Origin: a virus
Taxonomy: Duplodnaviria > Heunggongvirae > Uroviricota > Caudoviricetes
Strand: one strand, 5' to 3'
Length of the DNA stretch: 14,887 bases
Virus record (IMG/VR): IMGVR_UViG_3300012269_000002
Location: 146,407 to 161,293 of that record
The position numbers were made by a program, and so were the translations under genes. Under the pieces are notes generated by a model. The model had not been told where the DNA came from and searched no databases. It saw only the letters and a program-made list of their open reading frames with translations. Of the stretch, positions 4,086 to 14,887 are shown piece after piece (position 1 is the first letter of the stretch; every line of letters starts with the position of its first letter).

Positions 4086-4706
4086 ATGAAAATAGTCTTA
4101 AAAATAATTTTAATGGTCTTAATGTTGGGCTGTACACCAGAAGATGGTAAAGATGGTATAGATGGTTTAAGTTGTTGGGATTTAAACGCTAACGGTGATG
4201 GCGATACAAATGAGGACATCAATGGTGATGGTCAATATAATACTCTTGATTGTAACGCCCCCCAAGGAGTTCAAGGCCCAGAAGGTACTGATGGTCCACA
4301 AGGCCCAGAAGGCCCAGAAGGTACTGATGGTCCACAAGGTTCACAAGGTCCACAAGGTCCACAAGGTCCACAAGGTCCACAAGGTCCACAAGGTGATAAT
4401 GGTTTATCAGTAATATATAAAGAAGAACTTCTACCATCCGAAATCACTTGTACTGGTCGTTTAGTTTCGGTTACTTGGGGTTTTGACGTAAATTTAAATA
4501 AAATTATAGAATCATCGGAAGTTAAGGGGGTATTTAGATTTTGTTTAATTAATATCAATTCTAAACTTGTAAGTATATCAAACAAACCAACACCCGAAGA
4601 ATGTCCTAACGGGGGTAATGTAATAATATTCGGAATAGATAAAGATAATAGCGACACGTTAACAGATGGTGATGAAGTCGTATTTACATCGAGGTTATGT
4701 AATTAA
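4086..4706 (+). CDS. Collagen-like (Gly-X-Y) lipoprotein
   Basis: Signal peptide with lipobox MLG-C16, acidic post-Cys segment (CTPEDGKDG), Asp-rich [10 protein letters not shown]...DC motif, about 16 consecutive GXY triplets, and two C-terminal C...G-x-D-x-[N/D] repeats. Confidence 0.85.
4275..4394 (+). repeat. 9-bp tandem repeats encoding GXY triplets
   Basis: ggtccacaa x5 perfect at 4347-4391, plus a 27-bp duplicated unit ggcccagaaggtactgatggtccacaa at 4275 and 4311. Confidence 0.95.
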
Positions 4707-7413: not shown

Positions 7414-7456
7414 TTGACTAATAAGAATACTTTTACTATATTTGCTTATATTTAAT
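7414..7456 (+). promoter_or_regulatory. Promoter region of tRNA array 1: Bacteroidota-type promoter plus TATTTAAT motif
   Basis: TTG 7414-7416, N20, TATATTTG 7437-7444; TATTTAAT 7449-7456. Confidence 0.8.
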
Positions 7457-7493
7457 AACAAAGGGTTAAACCTTTAATAAAATAAAAATAAAA

Positions 7494-7577
7494 ATGAAAA
7501 CAATTAATAACATACTATCTGTCCTTTGTTTATGTTTACTAGTCTTAGTGAGCGTGTCGGGCTGTGGAATTAATTGA
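7494..7577 (+). CDS. Putative attenuator leader peptide 1 (Leu/Val/Cys-rich), 27 aa
   Basis: MKTINNILSVLCLCLLVLVSVSGCGIN; lies between the promoter and a terminator directly preceding tRNA-Cys/Val/Leu. Confidence 0.75.
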   Translation: MKTINNILSVLCLCLLVLVSVSGCGIN

Positions 7578-7598
7578 ACTAAATTTTAATTAATATAC

Positions 7599-7632
7599 AA
7601 AGTCCGATACTGTAAAGCATCGGACTTTTTTT
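7599..7632 (+). terminator. Intrinsic terminator (attenuator) immediately before tRNA array 1
   Basis: aaagtccgat (7599-7608) / atcggacttt (7619-7628) stem plus a U-tract to 7632; tRNA-Cys starts at 7635. Confidence 0.88.
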
Positions 7633-7634
7633 AT

Positions 7635-7717
7635 GCCTAATTGCCAGAGTGGCCGAATGGGGCGGTCTGCAAAACCGCTAGAGAAATCTCACGTTGGTTC
7701 GAATCCAACATTAGGCT
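7635..7717 (+). tRNA. tRNA-Cys(GCA) with long variable arm
   Basis: Acceptor gcctaat/attaggc, anticodon arm gcggt-ctGCAaa-accgc, T arm gttgg-ttcgaat-ccaac, U73 discriminator, variable hairpin gaga-aa-tctc; no encoded CCA. Confidence 0.85.
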
Positions 7718-7730
7718 CAAATAGTGAAAT

Positions 7731-7805
7731 ACCTTTATAGCTCAGTTGGTTTAGAGCAACATTTTTACAAGGTGAAGGTCGGGGGTTCGACTCCCTCTAA
7801 AGGTA
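7731..7805 (+). tRNA. tRNA-Val(TAC), weak anticodon stem
   Basis: Acceptor accttta/taaaggt, D arm gctc/gagc, loop ttTACaa, T loop ttcgact. The anticodon stem has two G-U pairs and one mismatch. Confidence 0.8.
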
Positions 7806-7811
7806 CAAATT

Positions 7812-7897
7812 GGGCCAGTGGTGGAACTGGTAGACACGCAGGGTTTAAGCCCCTGTGCTCCGTAAGGGGCGTGAGGGTTCGAATCCCTCTTGGCCCA
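7812..7897 (+). tRNA. tRNA-Leu(TAA)
   Basis: Acceptor gggccag/ttggccc, caggg-ttTAAgc-ccctg, long variable arm, gaggg-ttcgaat-ccctc, A73. Confidence 0.92.
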
Positions 7898-7903
7898 CAA
7901 ATT

Positions 7904-7947
7904 GCCCCTATAGTGTAATAAAACCATGCATAAAGCATTAGTTCGAG
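7904..7947 (+). pseudogene. Degenerate tRNA 5' fragment; matching 3' acceptor strand at 8646-8652, at the far end of the endonuclease gene
   Basis: gccccta-ta-gtgtaa... and gttcgag remnant; tgggggt-acaaa at 8646-8657 is complementary to gccccta and carries the acaaa trailer seen after most tRNAs here. Confidence 0.5.
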
Positions 7948-7969
7948 TATTTATAATTAAAAATATAAT

Positions 7970-8662
7970 ATGAAAAATTGTGAAAATTGCGATAAATTAC
8001 AAAATAGTTCTTATGGTTCTGGGAGGTTTTGTGATTCTAAATGCGCTAGAGGTTTCTCAACTAAAAATAAACGAGGTGAAATTAATAAAAAGATTAGTAA
8101 AACCTTAACAAGAGAAGACTCTTTATTCAATAGAAAATGTAGATTTTGTAGTGAAGAATATAAGAGTTATAAAAATAAAAATGTTTTATATTGTAGTAAT
8201 AAATGTAGGGCTAAATATAACTGGAGTGATGAAGACTACCGAAAGCGTCAGATAGCCATTATTAGAGAGCGATGTGATAATGATGAAGAGAGAGAACGAC
8301 TTAAGGAAATAGGTAGAAAAGGTGGTTTTGGTAAAAAGGGATATACTAAAAATGGTGTTTATTTTGAATCTAATTTTGAAAAAAAATGTTTTGAGTTTTT
8401 AGATTCAAAATCAATTAAATTTATACCACATAAACCAATACCTAATTCTAGTAAAATTAGTGATGTTTATTTAAATGATTTTGAATTATGGATTGAATTA
8501 GATGGGGTTGATAGAGAAAAGAGAAAAAAATGGTTAGGTGAAAATTATAAGTATTGGTTAAATAAATTAGAAATATATAAAAGAGAGGGGATAAATGTAA
8601 AAATAATTAAAACTTATGATGAGTTTGTTAGATTTATAATAAAATTGGGGGTACAAAATTAA
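7970..8662 (+). CDS. Zinc-finger + PD-(D/E)XK (Vsr/DUF559-like) putative homing endonuclease
   Basis: CENC...GSGRFCDSKC and CRFC...YCSNKC fingers; FESNFEKKCFEFL...SDVYL...WIELDG nuclease core; located inside the tRNA array. Confidence 0.75.
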   Translation: MKNCENCDKLQNSSYGSGRFCDSKCARGFSTKNKRGEINKKISKTLTREDSLFNRKCRFCSEEYKSYKNKNVLYCSNKCRAKYNWSDEDYRKRQIAIIRERCDNDEERERLKEIGRKGGFGKKGYTKNGVYFESNFEKKCFEFLDSKSIKFIPHKPIPNSSKISDVYLNDFELWIELDGVDREKRKKWLGENYKYWLNKLEIYKREGINVKIIKTYDEFVRFIIKLGVQN

Positions 8663-8721
8663 TGATTATGTATGTAAAAATTTACGGTTTTGGTTAGTGC
8701 AAATAAAAGCACATCAAAACT

Positions 8722-8895
8722 ATGGGAAGACACAAAATAATTGTCGAAAACACAACAGATAGTCGTGTGTATAAAATGACTATGAGAAAAGTACATTTAC
8801 ACTGTGATTTTTGTCCACCTAATAAAGGGTGTAATGGAAAGAAATATGGTATAGATGATAACTGGAAGAATTATAAAAATAAACAGTGGGGTTAA
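8722..8895 (+). CDS. Small Cys-containing hypothetical protein, 57 aa
   Basis: Not in ORF track. MGRHKIIVENTTDSRVYKMTMRKVHLHCDFCPPNKGCNGKKYGIDDNWKNYKNKQWG contains H-x-H-C-x-x-C-P-P...C, a possible metal site. Confidence 0.65.
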   Translation: MGRHKIIVENTTDSRVYKMTMRKVHLHCDFCPPNKGCNGKKYGIDDNWKNYKNKQWG

Positions 8896-8907
8896 CCCCC
8901 ACAAATT

Positions 8908-8993
8908 GCCCTAGTGGTGGAACTGGTAGACACACAGGGTTTAAGCCCCTGTGCCTCGTAAGGGGCGTGAGGGTTCGACTCCCTTCTGGCCCA
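8908..8993 (+). tRNA. Second tRNA-Leu(TAA) copy with mismatched acceptor stem (possible pseudo-tRNA)
   Basis: Near-duplicate of 7812-7897, but the 5' strand is gccctag against 3' ctggccc (two C-C mismatches). Confidence 0.65.
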
Positions 8994-9001
8994 CATATTA
9001 T

Positions 9002-9027
9002 GGCTTAGTGGTGGAATGGTAGACACG
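9002..9027 (+). pseudogene. 5' fragment of a tRNA-Leu (acceptor strand + D arm)
   Basis: ggcttag-tg-gtgg-aatggtaga-cac-g, then abruptly non-tRNA sequence; can pair (with 3 G-U) to ctaggtt at 9663-9669. Confidence 0.6.
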
Positions 9028-9035
9028 TTTAAAAT

Positions 9036-9118
9036 AGCTCAGTGGGTAAAAAAGCGAACGGCAGAGCATTGGTCCTTAGAAGGCCAGACCTTTAAGGGTT
9101 CGAATCCCTTCTGAGTTA
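9036..9118 (+). tRNA. Atypical tRNA-Leu(TAG)-like gene
   Basis: Acceptor agctcag/ctgagtt, tggtc-ctTAGaa-ggcca, aaggg-ttcgaat-ccctt. It has an extra ~9-nt A-rich insert before the D arm and only a ~7-nt variable region. Confidence 0.55.
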
Positions 9119-9172
9119 CAAATTATTATACACTAAAGTAGCCTTTCATTAATGTGTACCGTATTTATTAAT

Positions 9173-9622
9173 ATGAGAATAGATATATTAGAAAGAAAAG
9201 ATGAAATTAATGGGTGGATTGATATTAATCAATCTAAAGCGTTTATATGTAGAGAATTAAAGTGTAAACCAGAAACATTAAATTCTTATTTAGATAAAAT
9301 GGGTATTATTTATGGTGGTAATAAAGGTGGTAAAAATATTAAAATTAGTAACGATAGAAAAACAGCTCTAGAATATTCAAAGTCAACATGTGTTAAAAGT
9401 AATTTATTAAAAAATAAGTTAATAGAAGATAATGTAAAAAAACATAAATGTGAAAATTGTGACTTACATATGTGGATGGGTAAATTAATACCTATAGAAT
9501 TACACCACATTGATGGTAATAAATATAACAATAAATTTACTAATTTACAGATTTTATGTCCTAATTGTCATTCATTAACAGAAAATAATTCTGGTAAAAA
9601 TAAAGGAAACTATAATAAATAA
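9173..9622 (+). CDS. HNH endonuclease (start probably 9173 rather than 9152)
   Basis: KCENC...IELHHIDGNKYNNKFTNLQILCPNCH motif; TATTTATT at 9162-9169 precedes ATG 9173. Confidence 0.9.
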   Translation: MRIDILERKDEINGWIDINQSKAFICRELKCKPETLNSYLDKMGIIYGGNKGGKNIKISNDRKTALEYSKSTCVKSNLLKNKLIEDNVKKHKCENCDLHMWMGKLIPIELHHIDGNKYNNKFTNLQILCPNCHSLTENNSGKNKGNYNK

Positions 9623-9670
9623 GAAACCAATGCTCGAAAGGGCGTGTGAGTTCGAATCTCACCTAGGTTA
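9620..9670 (+). pseudogene. 3' half of a tRNA-Leu starting in the anticodon loop, overlapping the HNH stop codon
   Basis: taagaa-accaa-long variable arm (gctc-gaaa-gggc)-gtgag-ttcgaat-ctcac-ctaggtt-a-caaa. Confidence 0.7.
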
Positions 9671-9700
9671 CAAAGGATGATTACAGCAAAAGAAAACGGA

Positions 9701-9774
9701 TAAAAAAGCGAATGGCAGAGCATTGGTCCTAAGAAGGCCAGACCTTTAAGGGTTCGAATCCCTTCTGAGTTACA
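9701..9774 (+). repeat. 74-bp copy of 9047-9120 (5'-truncated Leu-like tRNA, anticodon AAG)
   Basis: Identical to 9047-9120 except two positions, one of which is the wobble base (T9077 vs A9731); the acceptor 5' strand is missing. Confidence 0.9.
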
Positions 9775-9776
9775 TT

Positions 9777-9804
9777 AAAAGGTTGGTATTTACCAGCCTT
9801 TTTT
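9777..9804 (+). terminator. Intrinsic terminator closing tRNA array 1
   Basis: aaaaggttggt-attt-accagcctttttt hairpin with U-tract. Confidence 0.85.
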
Positions 9805-9833
9805 GTTTTATAAAGTATTTATAAATAAAACAA

Positions 9834-10247
9834 ATGCAGTTAAGTATAATGAAAAATATGGAAGCCGCTGAATACCACGGTTCCGAATTTGGACAGGATG
9901 TGGAACCTAAGGGTACATATGTGTTAGAATGGGACCGAAACATCAAACTATTTCCAGGTTGGATAGGTGGTATGGCCAATTTAACCAAACCATTATACAT
10001 TGACTTAGATGAATACAATAACCCAATTGACTATAAGATGGATTTATCCACTAAATTTAAGGCAAAGGGTGCAAATTTAACTAAAAAATTAATGTCACAA
10101 GGTTATGATTCAATTATAACTAGAGATAAAAAGTATGGCACTGGGGAAATAGTATTATTTCCTAATTCAAAATTTATGTTGGATATAGGTGAGGGTAAAT
10201 CAATAATTATAAAATTGCTCAAAGAATCTAATTTATATGAAAGATAA
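9834..10247 (+). CDS. Small ADP-ribosyltransferase-fold protein (ART-PolyVal-like pattern)
   Basis: YHGS...GTYV...KPLYIDL...LMSQGYDSII...GEIVLF pattern; TATTTATA at 9816-9823 upstream. Confidence 0.55.
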   Translation: MQLSIMKNMEAAEYHGSEFGQDVEPKGTYVLEWDRNIKLFPGWIGGMANLTKPLYIDLDEYNNPIDYKMDLSTKFKAKGANLTKKLMSQGYDSIITRDKKYGTGEIVLFPNSKFMLDIGEGKSIIIKLLKESNLYER

Positions 10248-10905
10248 TATAAAAAAGTTACTAAGTGAATCCTTGGTTTTTGAAGTACTAGAAAACATGA
10301 TAGGTGAAGATTACCCATCTAGCTTTAATATGGATGAGTTTAAAAAACTAAACTCTTTTAATGCTAGGATAAGATATTGTCAAGAAAATTTACAAAGAAT
10401 ATCATCTGGTTCTGGTAGGATAGTTTATAAAATAGATGATGAAAAAGTTTTAAAGTTAGCCAAAAATAAAAAAGGTGTCGCTCAAAACGAAATAGAAATA
10501 TCACACTCACAATATCACGATATAGAAGATGTGGTTGCACAAGTATTCGATTATCATCCACAAGACTTATGGTCGGAAATGGAGTTAGCAAGAAAAGTTA
10601 GACTTAATGACTTTAAACGTATAACTGGTTTTAGTTTTGAGGATTATTCTTCGGTACTTCTTAGTTATAGTGATAGGGATAAACCTAGACCCACATATCC
10701 TAAGGTAGACCCAGAATTATCTGATGCCATGTGGGACGATGAGTTTGTTAGCGGTATTTTGGATTATGTGGGTAATTACGACTTACCCGTTGGCGATTTA
10801 GTTAGATTAAATTCATATGGTATTGTACAAAGAAATGGTGAAGATACTATTGTAATAATAGATTATGGATTAGATAAAAATACATATACCTCATATTATT
10901 CTTAA
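10237..10905 (+). CDS. Protein-kinase-like fold protein
   Basis: Gly loop SGSGRIVY, VLK lysine, QNEIE helix-C Glu, GDLVRLNSYG catalytic loop, IIDYGL (DFG-like). Confidence 0.8.
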   Translation: MKDNIKKLLSESLVFEVLENMIGEDYPSSFNMDEFKKLNSFNARIRYCQENLQRISSGSGRIVYKIDDEKVLKLAKNKKGVAQNEIEISHSQYHDIEDVVAQVFDYHPQDLWSEMELARKVRLNDFKRITGFSFEDYSSVLLSYSDRDKPRPTYPKVDPELSDAMWDDEFVSGILDYVGNYDLPVGDLVRLNSYGIVQRNGEDTIVIIDYGLDKNTYTSYYS

Positions 10906-10909
10906 AAAT

Positions 10910-11476
10910 ATGAAACAGCTATCAGAAACAAAAACATTAATTAAAAAGTTAATCAGGGAAAACCTGTCAAACGATTGTGACTGTTGTAAGTACTTTGATA
11001 TGAACACAGTAAACGATTATATTGAAATTGAAAAACCACTTTACTCCATTGTGGCTAAAAGAAGGGTTGGTATCATTGAATACATATCACCAAAACAATA
11101 CATATATAGAATAGCAAACGGTTTCGGAATATCTTATGAGGATGCCTTAGGTGGTGGTTATGATAAGGAAAGAGCTGCTAAGTATGCCGAGAGAATGAGA
11201 AACGGTGAGAAGGCCCCAGTTGGTTTCTACACTCACGATAACTCAAGTCAGGAAGGTAGACACAGAGCTATGGCGGCAATGATGAACGATTGTAGTCTTA
11301 TTCCAGTTGTTAAGATTAAACACTTGAACAATGATGAGTTCTTAGAATATGTAAACCAGTTCAAGGACATGGACTATGACGAATTAAACCAAGACTTCAT
11401 GGCGGTTGGGTATCCAAACGGTATAAGTAAGCTGGGTTACAATGACTTAAAACGTTTCGTAGAGTACAATATGTAA
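10910..11476 (+). CDS. ParB/Srx-like N-terminal domain protein
   Basis: KAPVGF...QEGRHRAMAA...IPV matches the ParB-N (D/E)GxHR motif. Confidence 0.65.
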   Translation: MKQLSETKTLIKKLIRENLSNDCDCCKYFDMNTVNDYIEIEKPLYSIVAKRRVGIIEYISPKQYIYRIANGFGISYEDALGGGYDKERAAKYAERMRNGEKAPVGFYTHDNSSQEGRHRAMAAMMNDCSLIPVVKIKHLNNDEFLEYVNQFKDMDYDELNQDFMAVGYPNGISKLGYNDLKRFVEYNM

Positions 11477-11565
11477 AAACTTTATTCAAAATTATTTGGT
11501 TTTACCGTTTATTTAACGGAGCGTAAAACCCACCCATCGTTTTTACGTGGGTGGGATGTAAGCGA

Positions 11566-11976
11566 CTAACCCTGATTAAGGATATACTCACGAATAGTAT
11601 CAGGTGATGCTTCACCTATTGAACAAACGAAATACCCATCACTCCAAAACATATCTTTGTACCAATATTCTTTACGAAGTGATGTAGAGTGTAACAACCA
11701 TATTTGACGAGTAGATTCTTGTTTTAACCTACGAACTAATTGTGAAACAGACAAACGAGGAATGTATTGAATTAAGAAATGGATATGGTCAATATCAGAC
11801 TCCATTACCTCAATTTCAAAATCCGAATTATCAGCTATTGATTGAAATATTTGTTTAATATCATTATTTAATTGACCTATAAGTAACTTTTTACGATACT
11901 TGCAGACAAAGATTAAATGACATTTTAAGTAATGTTTAGAGCGATTTGTACTGATGTAATTAGATTTTTTAGACAT
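11566..11976 (-). CDS. tnpA: Y1 HUH transposase
   Basis: HLIFVCKYRK, DHIHFL (HUH), FWSDGYF, IREYILNQG (catalytic Tyr). Confidence 0.97.
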   Translation of the reverse strand: MSKKSNYISTNRSKHYLKCHLIFVCKYRKKLLIGQLNNDIKQIFQSIADNSDFEIEVMESDIDHIHFLIQYIPRLSVSQLVRRLKQESTRQIWLLHSTSLRKEYWYKDMFWSDGYFVCSIGEASPDTIREYILNQG

Positions 11977-12092
11977 ACGAAGTAATTTTTTTTGTAAGTG
12001 TTTCTCAAAATGAATGGAAACACTTACAAAAAAATTGCGTAATTGTAAAAATAATTGTATCTTTACAAAATATTAGACTATTTAATAATAGA

Positions 12093-13295
12093 ATGAAGTT
12101 AATACATAAGTCATATAAGTTTAGAATTTCTCCTGACAATGAGCAGAAGATACTTCTCTCCAAACATTTTGGAGCAACTCGATTTGTGTTTAATCGTTAC
12201 CTGAATAGTAGAAAAGAAACTTATCTTGAAGAAAAGAAATCACTTAACTACTATGATAATGCGAATGACTTAACAAAACTTAAAAAAGAAGAAGAGTTTG
12301 TTTGGTTGAAGGAAATCAATAGTCAAAGTTTACAATCTTCTTTGAGAAATCTTGATACGGCTTACAATAAATTTTTCAGAAAGCAAACCCAGTTCCCAAG
12401 ATTTAAAAGCAAATACGACAAGCAAAGTTTTACCATACCTCAATCAGTATCTATTGAAGAGGGTAAATTGTGTATTCCTAAATTTAATAAAGGAATTGAT
12501 ATTAATATTCACAGAGAAATTGAAGGCAAACTTCTATTCGCCACAATATCTAAATCAACAACAGGGAATTACTATGTGAGTATAACCTGTGAGGTAGAAT
12601 ATACACCATTTGAAAAAACAAACTCAAAGGTTGGTATTGATACAGGGATTAAGGATTTGGCAATACTTTCAGATGGCAAGGTGTATGAGAATATTAAAAC
12701 ACTCAAAGCCAATTTAAAGACTTTAAAATACGAACAAAGACAATTATCTAAAAAAACAAAGGGAAGCAATTCCAGATTAAAACAAAAATCAAAACTTGCA
12801 AGAGTACACGAAAAAGTAACCAATATCAGGAAAGACTATTTGCATAAGGTCAGTACAGAAATCATCAAAAATCACGATGTAATTTGTATTGAAGATTTAG
12901 CTGTTAAGAATATGATGAAGAATCATAAGTTGGCACAAGCATTTTCTGATGTTTCGTTGGGTACTTTTTACACAATGCTTGAATATAAAGCTAATTGGAA
13001 TGATAAAGTAGTTGTTAAAATTGACAGATTCTTTCCGAGTAGCAAAAACTGCAACGTGTGTAATTACATTAACCAAGACCTAACTCTAAAAGATAGAGAA
13101 TGGACTTGTCTAAGTTGTAATACAATACACGACAGAGATTTTAACGCAAGCATTAATATTAAAAAACAAGGTTTAAAAATACTATCTGGTTCAGGAACTG
13201 ACTCGGATATAAAACAAAAACGGAGTAAGGCGTTGCCATTAGGTGAGTCTATGACCTCCGAAGCCCATCCCATGGGCTCTGCCGTGGGTGGGTAG
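12093..13295 (+). CDS. tnpB: TnpB RNA-guided endonuclease
   Basis: HTH start YKFRISPDNEQ, RuvC-I GIDTG, RuvC-II IEDL, Zn finger CNVC...CLSC, RuvC-III DRDFNASINI; all catalytic acids present. Confidence 0.97.
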   Translation: MKLIHKSYKFRISPDNEQKILLSKHFGATRFVFNRYLNSRKETYLEEKKSLNYYDNANDLTKLKKEEEFVWLKEINSQSLQSSLRNLDTAYNKFFRKQTQFPRFKSKYDKQSFTIPQSVSIEEGKLCIPKFNKGIDINIHREIEGKLLFATISKSTTGNYYVSITCEVEYTPFEKTNSKVGIDTGIKDLAILSDGKVYENIKTLKANLKTLKYEQRQLSKKTKGSNSRLKQKSKLARVHEKVTNIRKDYLHKVSTEIIKNHDVICIEDLAVKNMMKNHKLAQAFSDVSLGTFYTMLEYKANWNDKVVVKIDRFFPSSKNCNVCNYINQDLTLKDREWTCLSCNTIHDRDFNASINIKKQGLKILSGSGTDSDIKQKRSKALPLGESMTSEAHPMGSAVGG

Positions 13296-13320
13296 TTCAC
13301 TAGAGCATTGAAACAAATTA
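13150..13320 (+). ncRNA. Predicted TnpB omegaRNA (scaffold overlapping the tnpB 3' end and right end; guide = flank 13301-13320); 5' boundary approximate
   Basis: Established architecture of IS605 TnpB loci; right-end hairpin and TCAC terminus visible. Confidence 0.6.
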
Positions 13321-13339
13321 AAAATAATTTCAAAAAAGC

Positions 13340-13420
13340 TTGATTATTACATTTTAATGTAGTATATTTGCAGTGTATTAAAAAATAAATGTACTTTTAA
13401 AGAAAAAGCACATATTTAAT
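13340..13420 (+). promoter_or_regulatory. Promoter region of tRNA array 2: Bacteroidota-type promoter plus TATTTAAT motif
   Basis: TTG 13340-13342, N20, TATATTTG 13363-13370; TATTTAAT 13413-13420. Confidence 0.8.
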
Positions 13421-13464
13421 TAAAAAGGATATTAATATCCATTAACGAATAAATAATAGAAATT

Positions 13465-13554
13465 ATGAAAACATTTAACAACATATTTGATTTTGCTATA
13501 GAAGCAGCCGAGGCGGATTTTAGCCTGGGGAGGTCGAGTATTGATAAAAGTTAA
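13465..13554 (+). CDS. Putative attenuator leader peptide 2 (Phe/Ala/Glu/Asp-rich), 29 aa
   Basis: MKTFNNIFDFAIEAAEADFSLGRSSIDKS; lies between the promoter and a terminator preceding tRNA-Ala/Phe/Phe/Glu. Confidence 0.75.
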   Translation: MKTFNNIFDFAIEAAEADFSLGRSSIDKS

Positions 13555-13585
13555 GTGTTCTAAAAAAACTAAATAACTAATTAAT

Positions 13586-13614
13586 AAACTCGATAGAAAT
13601 ATCGAGTTTTTTTT
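13586..13614 (+). terminator. Intrinsic terminator (attenuator) before tRNA array 2
   Basis: aaactcgata-gaaa-tatcgagttt plus U-tract. Confidence 0.9.
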
Positions 13615-13629
13615 GTTTTAATAATTAAT

Positions 13630-13702
13630 GGGGCTATAGTTTAATTGGCTAAAATAGGGGTTTTGCAAATCCCAGTCCTGAGTTCGATTCTCAGTAGCTC
13701 CA
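13630..13702 (+). tRNA. tRNA-Ala(TGC)
   Basis: Acceptor ggggcta/tagctcc with G3-U70, loop ttTGCaa, ctgag-ttcgatt-ctcag. Confidence 0.92.
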
Positions 13703-13717
13703 CTAAAGTAATAAATT

Positions 13718-13963
13718 ATGAAAGGAATTATAGATTGGAATGGTTTAACGATAGAACAATATATCGAACATTTAGAAGAAAAATTTATGTACGATTCAAG
13801 TGGTACAGCAAAAGCCGTATTTGAATTAATAAGTGCTTACAAAGTATTAGCTGAGTCACCTATTGTAGATTGTAAACATAAATCTGATTACACACCTTGT
13901 TATAATTCACAAGGGGAACTTATGTTCAAGCAATGTGATATTTGTGGGGGAGAATTTGATTAG
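13718..13963 (+). CDS. Hypothetical protein, 81 aa, C-terminal Cys cluster
   Basis: ORF between tRNAs; C-x-H...C...CDIC. Confidence 0.7.
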   Translation: MKGIIDWNGLTIEQYIEHLEEKFMYDSSGTAKAVFELISAYKVLAESPIVDCKHKSDYTPCYNSQGELMFKQCDICGGEFD

Positions 13964-13969
13964 TAATAA

Positions 13970-14042
13970 GGGGGTATAGCAAAGATGGTCTATGCGTTCG
14001 GCTGAAAACCGAAAGATGTTGGCTCGGTACCAACTGCCCTCA
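13970..14042 (+). tRNA. tRNA-Phe(GAA) with non-canonical T loop
   Basis: Acceptor gggggta/tgccctc, ttcgg-ctGAAaa-ccgaa; T loop CTCGGTA instead of TTCRANY. Confidence 0.78.
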
Positions 14043-14050
14043 CAAAACAA

Positions 14051-14076
14051 GGTACCTTAGCTCAGTTGGTAGAGCA
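14051..14076 (+). pseudogene. tRNA 5' fragment (acceptor strand + D arm) upstream of HNH gene
   Basis: ggtacct-ta-gctc-agttggta-gagc-a, D arm identical to that of tRNA-Phe at 14640; no downstream T arm. Confidence 0.65.
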
Positions 14077-14133
14077 CTTTGTAAAGATTAGTGTCACTTT
14101 TTTGTTTTTGTGATATTTATATAAAAAAGTATT

Positions 14134-14637
14134 ATGAAAATCGAAAAAGAAAAAATTAAAAATTTAGTAGAAGAGGGTCTTAATAATTCAGAGATTGCTG
14201 AAATAATAAATTGTCACAGGACAACTGTTCCAAAGAAGATGAAAAAATATGGAATAGAAAGACCAGAGAGTGATAACATTTGTTTGATTTGTGATAATGA
14301 AACCACATCGAGAAGAAATAGGTGTGATACATGTAACACTAAAATAAGAAGATACAGAGCTAAAAAAGCTGGTGTTGAATATTTGGGTTATAAGTGTAAT
14401 AGATGTGGTTGGTCTGGAGATTTATCTGGTTTTGATTTTCATCATATAGATGAAAAGAATTTTAATTTAGGTGCAGCTAAAATGGCGAACACAAAGTGGA
14501 AAGAAATTAAAAAAGAGTTAGATAAATGTGAGTTATTATGTGCATTATGTCATAGGTTAGAACATAGTGATTATGATAATGAAGTATTTTTGAAGATTGC
14601 CAATAAAAAAAGTGAAGATTTAATCTTCAAGGAATAA
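14134..14637 (+). CDS. HNH endonuclease with N-terminal HTH and zinc fingers
   Basis: GLNNSEIAEIINCHRTTV (HTH), CLIC/CDTC, KCNRCG...FDFHHID...CELLCALCHRLEH; TATTTATA at 14114-14121. Confidence 0.88.
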   Translation: MKIEKEKIKNLVEEGLNNSEIAEIINCHRTTVPKKMKKYGIERPESDNICLICDNETTSRRNRCDTCNTKIRRYRAKKAGVEYLGYKCNRCGWSGDLSGFDFHHIDEKNFNLGAAKMANTKWKEIKKELDKCELLCALCHRLEHSDYDNEVFLKIANKKSEDLIFKE

Positions 14638-14639
14638 TT

Positions 14640-14712
<73 letters not shown>

Positions 14713-14714
14713 CA

Positions 14715-14826
14715 AGTAGTTGTCGAAATGCCTTAGGGTAGTGATAATTAAGTTTATCGGCATTAGTGAGTTTTGCACAAAGTCGTGCATGTAATAAGGG
14801 CAAAAACAAATCCCTTTCCACCTACT
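14715..14826 (+). ncRNA. Candidate structured non-coding RNA between tRNA-Phe and tRNA-Glu
   Basis: Nested helices by eye: agtag/ctact, aatgcc/ggcatt enclosing gataa/ttatc, tgcac/gtgca, aaggg/ccctt. Confidence 0.4.
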
Positions 14827-14832
14827 AATTAT

Positions 14833-14887
14833 AGCCCTATCGACAAGCGGTTAAGTCATCACCCTTTCAAGGTGAAGTCACGGGTTC
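14833..14887 (+). tRNA. tRNA-Glu(TTC), truncated by window end
   Basis: agcccta-tc-gaca-agcggtta-agtc, tcacc-ctTTCaa-ggtga, start of T arm acggg-ttc. Confidence 0.85.

Follow-up and report, generated by a model that had tools for sequence, protein, structure and literature searches.

Putative leader-peptide attenuator cassettes ahead of tRNA gene arrays in a large AT-rich tailed phage

Locus and cassette anatomy

The stretch of DNA considered here, referred to as the window, comprises 14,887 nucleotides (nt), positions 146,407 to 161,293 of the IMG/VR virus record IMGVR_UViG_3300012269_000002, which is assigned to the Caudoviricetes. It carries two arrays of phage tRNA genes. Each array is preceded by a compact cassette that consists of a promoter, a 5' untranslated region (UTR) with a short motif and a small palindrome, a short open reading frame (ORF) that we call the leader, and an intrinsic terminator placed just before the first tRNA gene (Table 1). 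These cassettes, their counterparts in related phages, and the proposal that they control the tRNA genes behind them by transcription attenuation are the subject of this paper. The window forms the final 14.9 kb of a single contig of 161,293 bp (30.8% G+C), which derives from an AT-rich tailed phage with a contractile sheath (a myophage).

Cassette 1 stands ahead of a Cys/Val/Leu group of tRNA genes and cassette 2 ahead of a Phe/Ala/Glu/Asp group. Both leaders begin with a head of seven codons, and their first 21 nt are identical at 19 of 21 positions. The head is followed by a block that we term the sensor, which in leader 1 occupies approximately codons 8–21 (7515–7556) and contains Leu, Val and Cys codons, and in leader 2 occupies codons 8–19 (13486–13521) and contains Phe, Asp, Ala and Glu codons. 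The leader ATG lies 50 nt after the -7 box in cassette 1 and 95 nt after it in cassette 2. The palindrome of cassette 1 is an imperfect hairpin with a 5-bp stem and a 6-nt loop. tRNA-Cys begins 2 nt past the T-run of terminator 1, and tRNA-Ala 15 nt past the T-run of terminator 2. Cassette 1 leaves no space for an additional promoter. Array 1 is closed by a terminator of its own (9777–9810). A first-pass annotation of the window, made by a model from the sequence letters and a list of ORFs, had described the two leaders, the UTR motif, the palindromes and the promoters, and each of these sequence statements was confirmed at its coordinates.

Table 1. Features of the two cassettes and their tRNA arrays (window coordinates; pairing energies are predicted).
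Feature	Positions	Strand	Description
Promoter 1	7414–7444	+	TTGACT, 17 nt, TATATTTG; -7 box of the TAnnTTTG type
5' UTR module 1	7449–7475	+	TATTTAAT motif, 7449–7456; small hairpin, 7460–7475
Leader ORF 1	7494–7577	+	MKTINNILSVLCLCLLVLVSVSGCGIN; 27 codons, ATG start; stop codon 7575–7577
Candidate antiterminator strand (region 2) 1	7551–7564	+	Codons AGC GTG TCG GGC TG; pairs with 7600–7613, -16.9 kcal/mol
Intrinsic terminator 1	7602–7632	+	10-bp stem, GTAA loop, seven T
tRNA array 1	7635–9775	+	Cys(GCA), Val(UAC), Leu(UAA) x2, irregular UAG-loop tRNA-like copies, two endonuclease-type ORFs
Promoter 2	13340–13370	+	TTGATT, then TATATTTG at 13363–13370; TAnnTTTG -7 box
5' UTR module 2	13413–13440	+	TATTTAAT motif, 13413–13420; perfect 14-nt palindrome, 13427–13440
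Leader ORF 2	13465–13554	+	MKTFNNIFDFAIEAAEADFSLGRSSIDKS; 29 codons, ATG start
Candidate region 1 of cassette 2	13481–13494	+	Ile-Phe-Asp-Phe codons; 12-bp duplex with region 2, -9.5 kcal/mol
Candidate antiterminator strand (region 2) 2	13532–13540	+	GG TCG AGT A; pairs with 13586–13596, -9.9 kcal/mol
Intrinsic terminator 2	13589–13614	+	7–10-bp stem, GAAA loop, eight T
tRNA array 2	13630–14887	+	Ala(UGC), Phe(GAA), Phe(GAA), Glu(UUC); Glu truncated by the contig end

A family of cassettes in related phages

Further cassettes were predicted by the first-pass annotation, and they exist. A third lies at 121.5 kb in the same genome (121,509–121,742), with the shared promoter type, the leader MKTGNIHMSSINIWRRNSPGGSGMSNTVQGVI (head MKTGNI), a terminator, a small ORF and an array in the order His, Trp, Ser, Asn, Ser, Met, Arg, Arg. 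A fourth was found in a close relative (G001; 93% identical over cassette 2), in a region that corresponds to DNA beyond the end of the contig. Its 5' UTR is the same as that of cassette 1, its leader is MKNYTTTYQGKQYPQGQKPSRLGMLCITSSKTETGI, and its array holds Pro, Gln x3, Tyr, Lys, Thr and Gly. In the same relative array 2 extends with Asp(GUC) and Glu, so that the tRNA-Asp implied by the Asp codons of leader 2 is indeed present. The three leader-bearing tRNA clusters of the contig share the order promoter, short ORF, terminator and tRNAs; the initiator tRNA has a promoter of the cassette type and no leader.

Direct searches for more distant copies returned little. The string MKT.NN is confined to leaders 1 and 2 in a six-frame scan of the 161-kb genome, and the exact MKTxNNI head pattern retrieved from IMG/VR only the near-identical relative G001, the other matches being chance. 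A scan with the 5' UTR motif plus hairpin gave mainly chance matches in AT-rich DNA and one genuine match, again in G001, and a neighbouring 237-residue protein used as a search handle led to G001 only. Relatives were reached via homologues of the tail sheath protein, which number in the thousands, and the IMG/VR relatives with long contigs were examined. Two of these, G002 (205 kb) and G003 (360 kb, complete), whose tail sheaths are 63–68% identical, carry the identical four tRNA groups, each behind a promoter, an orthologous leader and a terminator.

Leader patterns from groups 3 and 2 were scanned for first and a generic detector (short ORF, terminator, tRNA) was applied next, which brought the collection to 49 distinct cassettes. 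Orthologues of leader 1 occur in five other phage contigs, and leader 2 is represented by 14 distinct orthologous cassettes. Across the family the leader ORF has 24–41 codons, the spacer from stop codon to terminator stem is 23–38 nt in all groups, and the terminators have energies of -7 to -14 kcal/mol (stem only) and 5–8 T; the three terminators of this genome, with flanking A/U pairs included, reach -11 to -17 kcal/mol. The genes downstream of the leaders are tRNAs, plus ORFs of the homing-endonuclease type and one small ORF of group 3. The conserved head expected from the first pass was recovered in the relaxed form M-[KR]-[TN]-x(0-3)-N-I in 42 of 45 leaders of groups 1–3 (5/6, 14/14 and 23/25, respectively) and in none of the three group 4 leaders. 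The idea of duplicated cassettes whose sensors are tuned so as to split the tRNAs into groups likewise agrees with the four groups, and their leaders, being kept in distant relatives; the control that they would exert is a matter of inference and is weighed below.

Leader codons match the tRNA arrays

Every isotype class of the four arrays, 19 of 19 and including the rare His and Trp, is present in the leader of its own array. When leader coverage by the own array is compared with windows of the same length from the long ORFs of the phage, the leaders fall in the top 0.2–2%, and in a 4x4 table of leaders by arrays each leader has its maximum with its own array, along the diagonal. Correspondence extends to isoacceptors: AGA and CGT stand next to each other in leader 3, and array 3 has tRNA-Arg with UCU and ACG anticodons. 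Leader composition had been expected to covary with downstream isotypes, and this is borne out across the family, where the share of array isotypes present in the own leader is 0.92–1.00 compared with 0.28–0.59 for the arrays of other groups. A more distant phage (G008) partitions its tRNAs in another way and has a matching leader, in which a G..GCDWQQE block precedes Gly, Trp, Cys, Gln, Glu and Asp tRNAs.

Conservation acts at the level of codons. Among 17 group 3 cassettes the AAC, ATA, CAT, TCG, ATT, TGG, AGA and AAT codons are invariant at all three positions, and third-position identity in the group 3 sensor is 0.78 versus 0.49 in the conserved small ORF directly downstream in the same genomes. 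Because synonymous sites of the sensor are more conserved than those of the neighbouring gene, and because the leader tails vary while keeping their complementarity to the terminator (next section), the comparison indicates that codons and RNA, and not a protein, are under selection.

Pairing between leader and terminator

In every cassette a segment at approximately codons 18–24 of the leader is complementary to the terminator 5' arm of the same cassette, and amounts to a copy of the 3' arm. This bears out the earlier suggestion that the GC-rich, TCG-containing codons of leaders 1 and 2 pair with their terminators (energies in Table 1). The segment changes along with the terminator from cassette to cassette. 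Within group 3 the pairs include GGUCAAGG with GCCUUGAC, GUCGGG with CCCGAC, and GAAUUCGG with GCCGAAUUC, and the tails that encode them are diverse (GQGM, MSG, TRSG, LES, ENS and others), each imitating the terminator 3' arm of the same cassette. The mean energy of cognate duplexes is -12.8 kcal/mol, compared with -9.1 +/- 0.32 kcal/mol when the arms are permuted among cassettes (p<5e-5), and the difference is also significant inside each of groups 1, 2 and 3 (p=0.017, p=0.019 and p<5e-5, respectively). A description of this strand as TCG-centred holds for the three cassettes of the genome and does not carry over to the family: TCG occurs in the antiterminator strand of 13 of 49 cassettes, and group 4 lacks both head and TCG.

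Nascent-transcript folding with a 30-nt ribosome footprint predicts that the position of the ribosome changes the fate of the terminator. In cassette 1 the modelled sequestration of the 5' arm is 0.97–0.98 while the A site is at codons 2–16 and 0.15–0.66 at codons 17–28. In cassette 2 the respective values are 0.49–0.69 at codons 2–16 and 0.09–0.24 from codon 20 on. RNAalifold on a MAFFT alignment of group 3 gave no useful structure, as the variable tails misalign.

Modular evolution of the cassettes

The cassettes can be divided into three modules that evolve differently. The front module is common to paralogues and orthologues; it runs from the promoter through the ATATTTA[AT] motif, in many cases a small hairpin, and a spacer rich in A to the head. 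ATATTTA[AT] is found in nearly all distinct 5' UTRs listed. Judged by eye (uncounted), about half to two thirds of them also have a hairpin after the motif, with stem sequences that differ. The frequency of the motif in the genome at large is unremarkable, as ATATTTAAT occurs 22 times against approximately 20 expected, which is the chance level, and the UTR motif carries weight solely because its place is conserved in the cassettes of relatives. The same figures rule out TATTTAAT as a genome-wide phage promoter.

The sensor makes up the middle module, which is group-specific and very stable. The rear module, which comprises the antiterminator strand and the terminator, evolves fastest. Between the window and G001 the identity is approximately 99% from the promoter to 6 nt past the stop codon of leader 2 and then collapses: spacer, terminator and tRNA-Ala have been exchanged en bloc. 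This boundary is an abrupt recombination breakpoint (window 13555–13720 compared with L011 12490–12900, minus strand). The incoming terminator of G001 retains ACUCGA, which is complementary to UCGAGU in the leader. The view of the first-pass annotation that only the sensor codons had been re-tuned in each copy must be given up, since it is the antiterminator and terminator that evolve fastest and since a terminator was swapped together with the first tRNA gene.

A proposed attenuation mechanism and its alternatives

Judged from these sequence patterns, each cassette is probably a ribosome-mediated (leader-peptide) transcription attenuator ahead of a phage tRNA operon. Anatomy, codon match, codon-level conservation and antiterminator covariation are observed; from them we infer that the leader is translated, that stalling causes read-through, and which signal is sensed in the cell. 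A strong host-type promoter would start a transcript of approximately 190 nt, and the leader, an ORF of 25–36 codons, would be translated while RNA polymerase approaches the intrinsic terminator that directly precedes the first tRNA gene. The central part of the ORF would act as a roll-call of the codons that the downstream tRNAs read. With fast decoding, the ribosome would soon cover the 3' part of the ORF, the terminator would form and the tRNA genes would stay silent. With slow decoding, when a cognate tRNA is scarce, uncharged or cleaved, the ribosome would stall in the sensor block, the strand downstream of it would be left free to sequester the 5' arm of the terminator, and the polymerase would read through into the tRNAs. 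The outcome would be negative feedback on four separate tRNA groups: Cys/Val/Leu; Phe/Ala/Glu/Asp; His/Trp/Ser/Asn/Ile/Met/Arg; and Pro/Gln/Tyr/Lys/Thr/Gly.

Several results weigh against this proposal. In equilibrium folding with a ribosome mask, terminators 2 and 3 win at every ribosome position, so that antitermination in cassettes 2 and 3 would need to be kinetic; the antiterminator of cassette 1 folds when the RNA is ribosome-free, a default unlike that of cassette 2. In group 3 the antiterminator strand ends 15–51 nt ahead of the stop codon, so a ribosome parked at the stop would leave it uncovered, and the modelled contrast in cassette 3 between stalling and running through is weak (0.76 versus approximately 0.5, and 0.76 again at the stop). 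Pairing of the upstream regions 1 and 2, which would provide an anti-antiterminator, cannot be separated from background (on average -9.7 kcal/mol within the own cassette and -8.5 kcal/mol with other groups). Candidate helices of this kind include the plausible 12 bp of cassette 2 and ACAUAC:GUAUGU in group 3. The swapped terminator of G001 pairs less well with its leader (-7.9 to -11 kcal/mol). Lastly, array isotypes account for only 38–65% of leader residues, and some group 2 arrays include extra tRNAs (His, Tyr, Pro) for which their leader has no codon.

Four alternatives can be considered. The most serious, which we regard as unlikely, accepts real attenuators and holds that they sense host amino-acid starvation, that is, tRNA charging, rather than the supply or cleavage of phage tRNAs. 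A stalled ribosome cannot distinguish a missing tRNA from an uncharged one, and the classical systems of trp and his attenuation do sense charging. Nevertheless, extra tRNA gives no relief from amino-acid starvation, which would make for weak regulatory logic, and the sensor codons distinguish isoacceptors (AGA/CGY for two Arg, TCG/AGT for two Ser and ATA/ATT for Ile), which would fit tRNA species better than amino acids.

Considerably less probable is that a trans-acting factor sets the RNA switch and the ORF is incidental. The factor could be uncharged tRNA, bound as in a T-box, or a protein that recognizes the UTR motif or hairpin. The conserved ATATTTA[AT] motif and the frequent hairpin would suit a binding site, and the equilibrium folds of cassettes 2 and 3, which favour termination, require that some factor tips the balance. 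A binding site, however, needs neither an open frame nor a given length, start codon or specific codons, all of which, third positions included, are conserved over the 49 cassettes. Moreover, the amino-acid roll-call fits the arrays, the 5' hairpin is absent from a sizeable minority of cassettes, and searches of the window and the third cassette locus for T-box and other Rfam families returned only tRNAs and noise at E<=1 and E<=0.1.

It is more doubtful still that the small ORFs encode functional peptides, with the terminator being a leaky stop between units. Conservation of the peptides in relatives would agree with this, as would the resemblance of leader 1 to a lipoprotein signal peptide, in which a hydrophobic core is followed by Ser-Gly-Cys and which might suggest a membrane or signal-like peptide. 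Yet only 0–4 residues follow the Cys, which leaves no mature part; the four groups are chemically unrelated and nonetheless share the same geometry and genomic place; the tails change residues freely while complementarity to the terminator is kept; and conservation of synonymous sites is higher in the sensor than in a bona fide gene next to it. A secreted lipoprotein precursor was considered for leader 1 and rejected, since its ORF stops 3 residues after the Cys. In its five orthologues the ORF ends at the Cys in three (G002/L421, L427 and L443) and two residues later in L368, and G003 has no Cys near the end. Chance assembly of short ORFs and terminators in AT-rich DNA is refuted in practice: such ORFs and AT-rich motifs such as TATTTAAT do occur at chance frequency, but the head is unique in the genome, tail probabilities are 0.002–0.02 per leader, 49 cassettes are conserved and the covariation has p<5e-5.

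An extension of the attenuation proposal is more tentative, and we consider it possible but on the unlikely side. Together, the four cassettes may constitute a single self-balancing network that covers the whole phage tRNA pool. Each operon would be induced only by slow reading of its own codons, for example after the action of host anticodon nucleases or other tRNA-depleting defences, and cross-coupling of the operons would come from the codons of the shared head (Lys, Thr, Asn, Ile), for which arrays 3 and 4 supply the tRNAs. If this is true, the sensing of decoding speed would be a general principle of counter-defence and homeostasis in large phages.

Phage, likely host and neighbouring genes

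The sequencing runs listed as containing the contig are ten DNA runs from lake and salt-lake water, with no RNA run among them. The contig probably represents approximately half of a jumbo-phage genome, because CheckV scored a 119-kb relative as 34% complete and because a relative with terminal repeats measures 360 kb. Promoters on the contig have the form TTG, approximately 19 nt, TAnnTTTG; this type occurs approximately ten times in the genome and is therefore general rather than specific to the cassettes. Shine-Dalgarno sequences are absent upstream of the leaders. We take the promoter form, the absence of Shine-Dalgarno sequences and likewise the A-rich UTR to resemble those of Bacteroidota, and the first two of these traits suggest a Bacteroidota host. 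No cultured relative reaches 42% identity in the tail sheath. Of the Flavobacterium phages, the nearest (Immutovirus) carries four tRNAs with no leader or terminator ahead of them, and blastn against GenBank phages matched neither window cassette.

The arrays contain several unusual tRNA genes. In array 1 the Cys(GCA) tRNA (7635–7718) measures 84 nt, its variable arm is long and its discriminator base is U; a Cys tRNA of 82–85 nt also heads array 1 in G002 and G003. Two near-identical tRNA-like 3' parts lie at approximately 9046–9118 and 9703–9775. Each has an acceptor stem of 8 bp and the anticodon loop CUUAGAA (UAG); they flank an HNH-type ORF (9152–9622), and neither ARAGORN nor Rfam calls them. 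If functional, these copies, whose UAG loop would read CUN Leu codons, would serve the CTA and CTT codons of leader 1. In array 2 a 5' tRNA fragment (14055–14100), an HTH-HNH ORF (14134–14637) and a complete tRNA-Phe (14640–14713) follow one another, and the whole (14055–14713) looks like the scar of a homing-endonuclease insertion. Array 3 contains four tRNA-shaped genes with 6-nt anticodon loops (L001 1020–1090, 2545–2624, 4962–5053 and 5122–5195, in a numbering where L001 509–742 equals genome 121,509–121,742). In one of them the variable arm is long and there is a CGA-like triplet, which would fit the TCG codon conserved in the leaders. In most members the group 3 terminator is separated from the first tRNA by a conserved ORF of approximately 56–69 residues without a family match (genome 121759–121929), which would be regulated together with the tRNAs.

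Elsewhere in the genome, a cassette-type promoter without a leader stands ahead of an apparent 5' half of an initiator tRNA (111245–111400). This putative half is broken in the anticodon loop by an intron-like insert with an endonuclease-like ORF. ARAGORN calls a transfer-messenger RNA at 109033–109394 with a tag of 26 residues that ends in ALA. Within the window, a complete element of the IS200/IS605 type (11566–13310) lies directly upstream of the cassette 2 promoter, with a Y1 transposase gene on the minus strand (11566–11976) and TnpB with a Cas12f-like TNB domain (12093–13295). Upstream of the tRNA region are genes for a 432-residue protein with a PARP-type ADP-ribosyltransferase domain (1392–2690; E 8e-20) and a 206-residue collagen-repeat/DUF7151 protein (4086–4706).

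Significance and comparison with known systems

The reasons why phages carry tRNAs are debated and include compensation for codon usage, replacement of a degraded host pool and evasion of tRNA-cleaving defences (PMC10264068, PMC11555353, PMC11464382). Almost nothing is known about the means by which phages regulate these genes, and our full-text literature searches turned up no account of tRNA genes, phage-borne or other, under leader-peptide control. What is new here is a 49-cassette family, the permutation test of the antiterminator, the codon conservation test, the head and 5' UTR module shared across paralogues, and the swap of a terminator block. If the attenuation proposal is true, a codon roll-call coupled to a terminator would be a direct read-out of decoding capacity for each tRNA group, and an old attenuation mechanism would have been turned into an autoregulator of tRNA supply. 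The size of the family, the conservation of codons and the natural covariation make the idea directly testable. A short ORF and terminator preceding tRNA arrays also provide a signature for annotation, one that currently goes unannotated.

With the attenuators of amino-acid operons (trpL, hisL, pheL, leuL, thrL) the cassettes share an ORF with diagnostic codons, an intrinsic terminator and pairing between the 3' part of the ORF and the 5' arm of the terminator. As in attenuators of the trp and his type, output would be set by the position of the ribosome, and as in the ilvGMEDA and thr leaders several amino acids would be sensed together. The choice between terminator and antiterminator is kinetic in classical attenuators, which is likewise what cassettes 2 and 3 would need. 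The differences are also evident. The targets are phage tRNA genes rather than genes for biosynthesis, transport or aminoacyl-tRNA synthetases; the sensor lists up to seven amino acids, with isoacceptor codons, mostly 1–4 codons each and no long runs; the phage has four paralogous cassettes with a common front end per genome; and the leaders lack a Shine-Dalgarno sequence and follow an A-rich UTR.

T-box riboswitches share a terminator/antiterminator switch that reads tRNA status and have translation-related targets. They bind uncharged tRNA directly and do not need translation, whereas the phage cassettes have a conserved ORF and give no T-box match. A nearer functional parallel is the pheST attenuator of Escherichia coli, with its pheM leader, in which a leader peptide reportedly controls a component of the decoding machinery by matching it to the supply of charged tRNA. 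That system acts on a synthetase gene and involves a single amino acid; in the phage the targets would be the tRNA genes themselves, which would make the autoregulation direct. The cassettes have the short ORF, the diagnostic codons, the terminator and the conserved antiterminator pairing of attenuators and, as far as can be judged from sequence, would extend that family to a new class of targets, tRNA genes.

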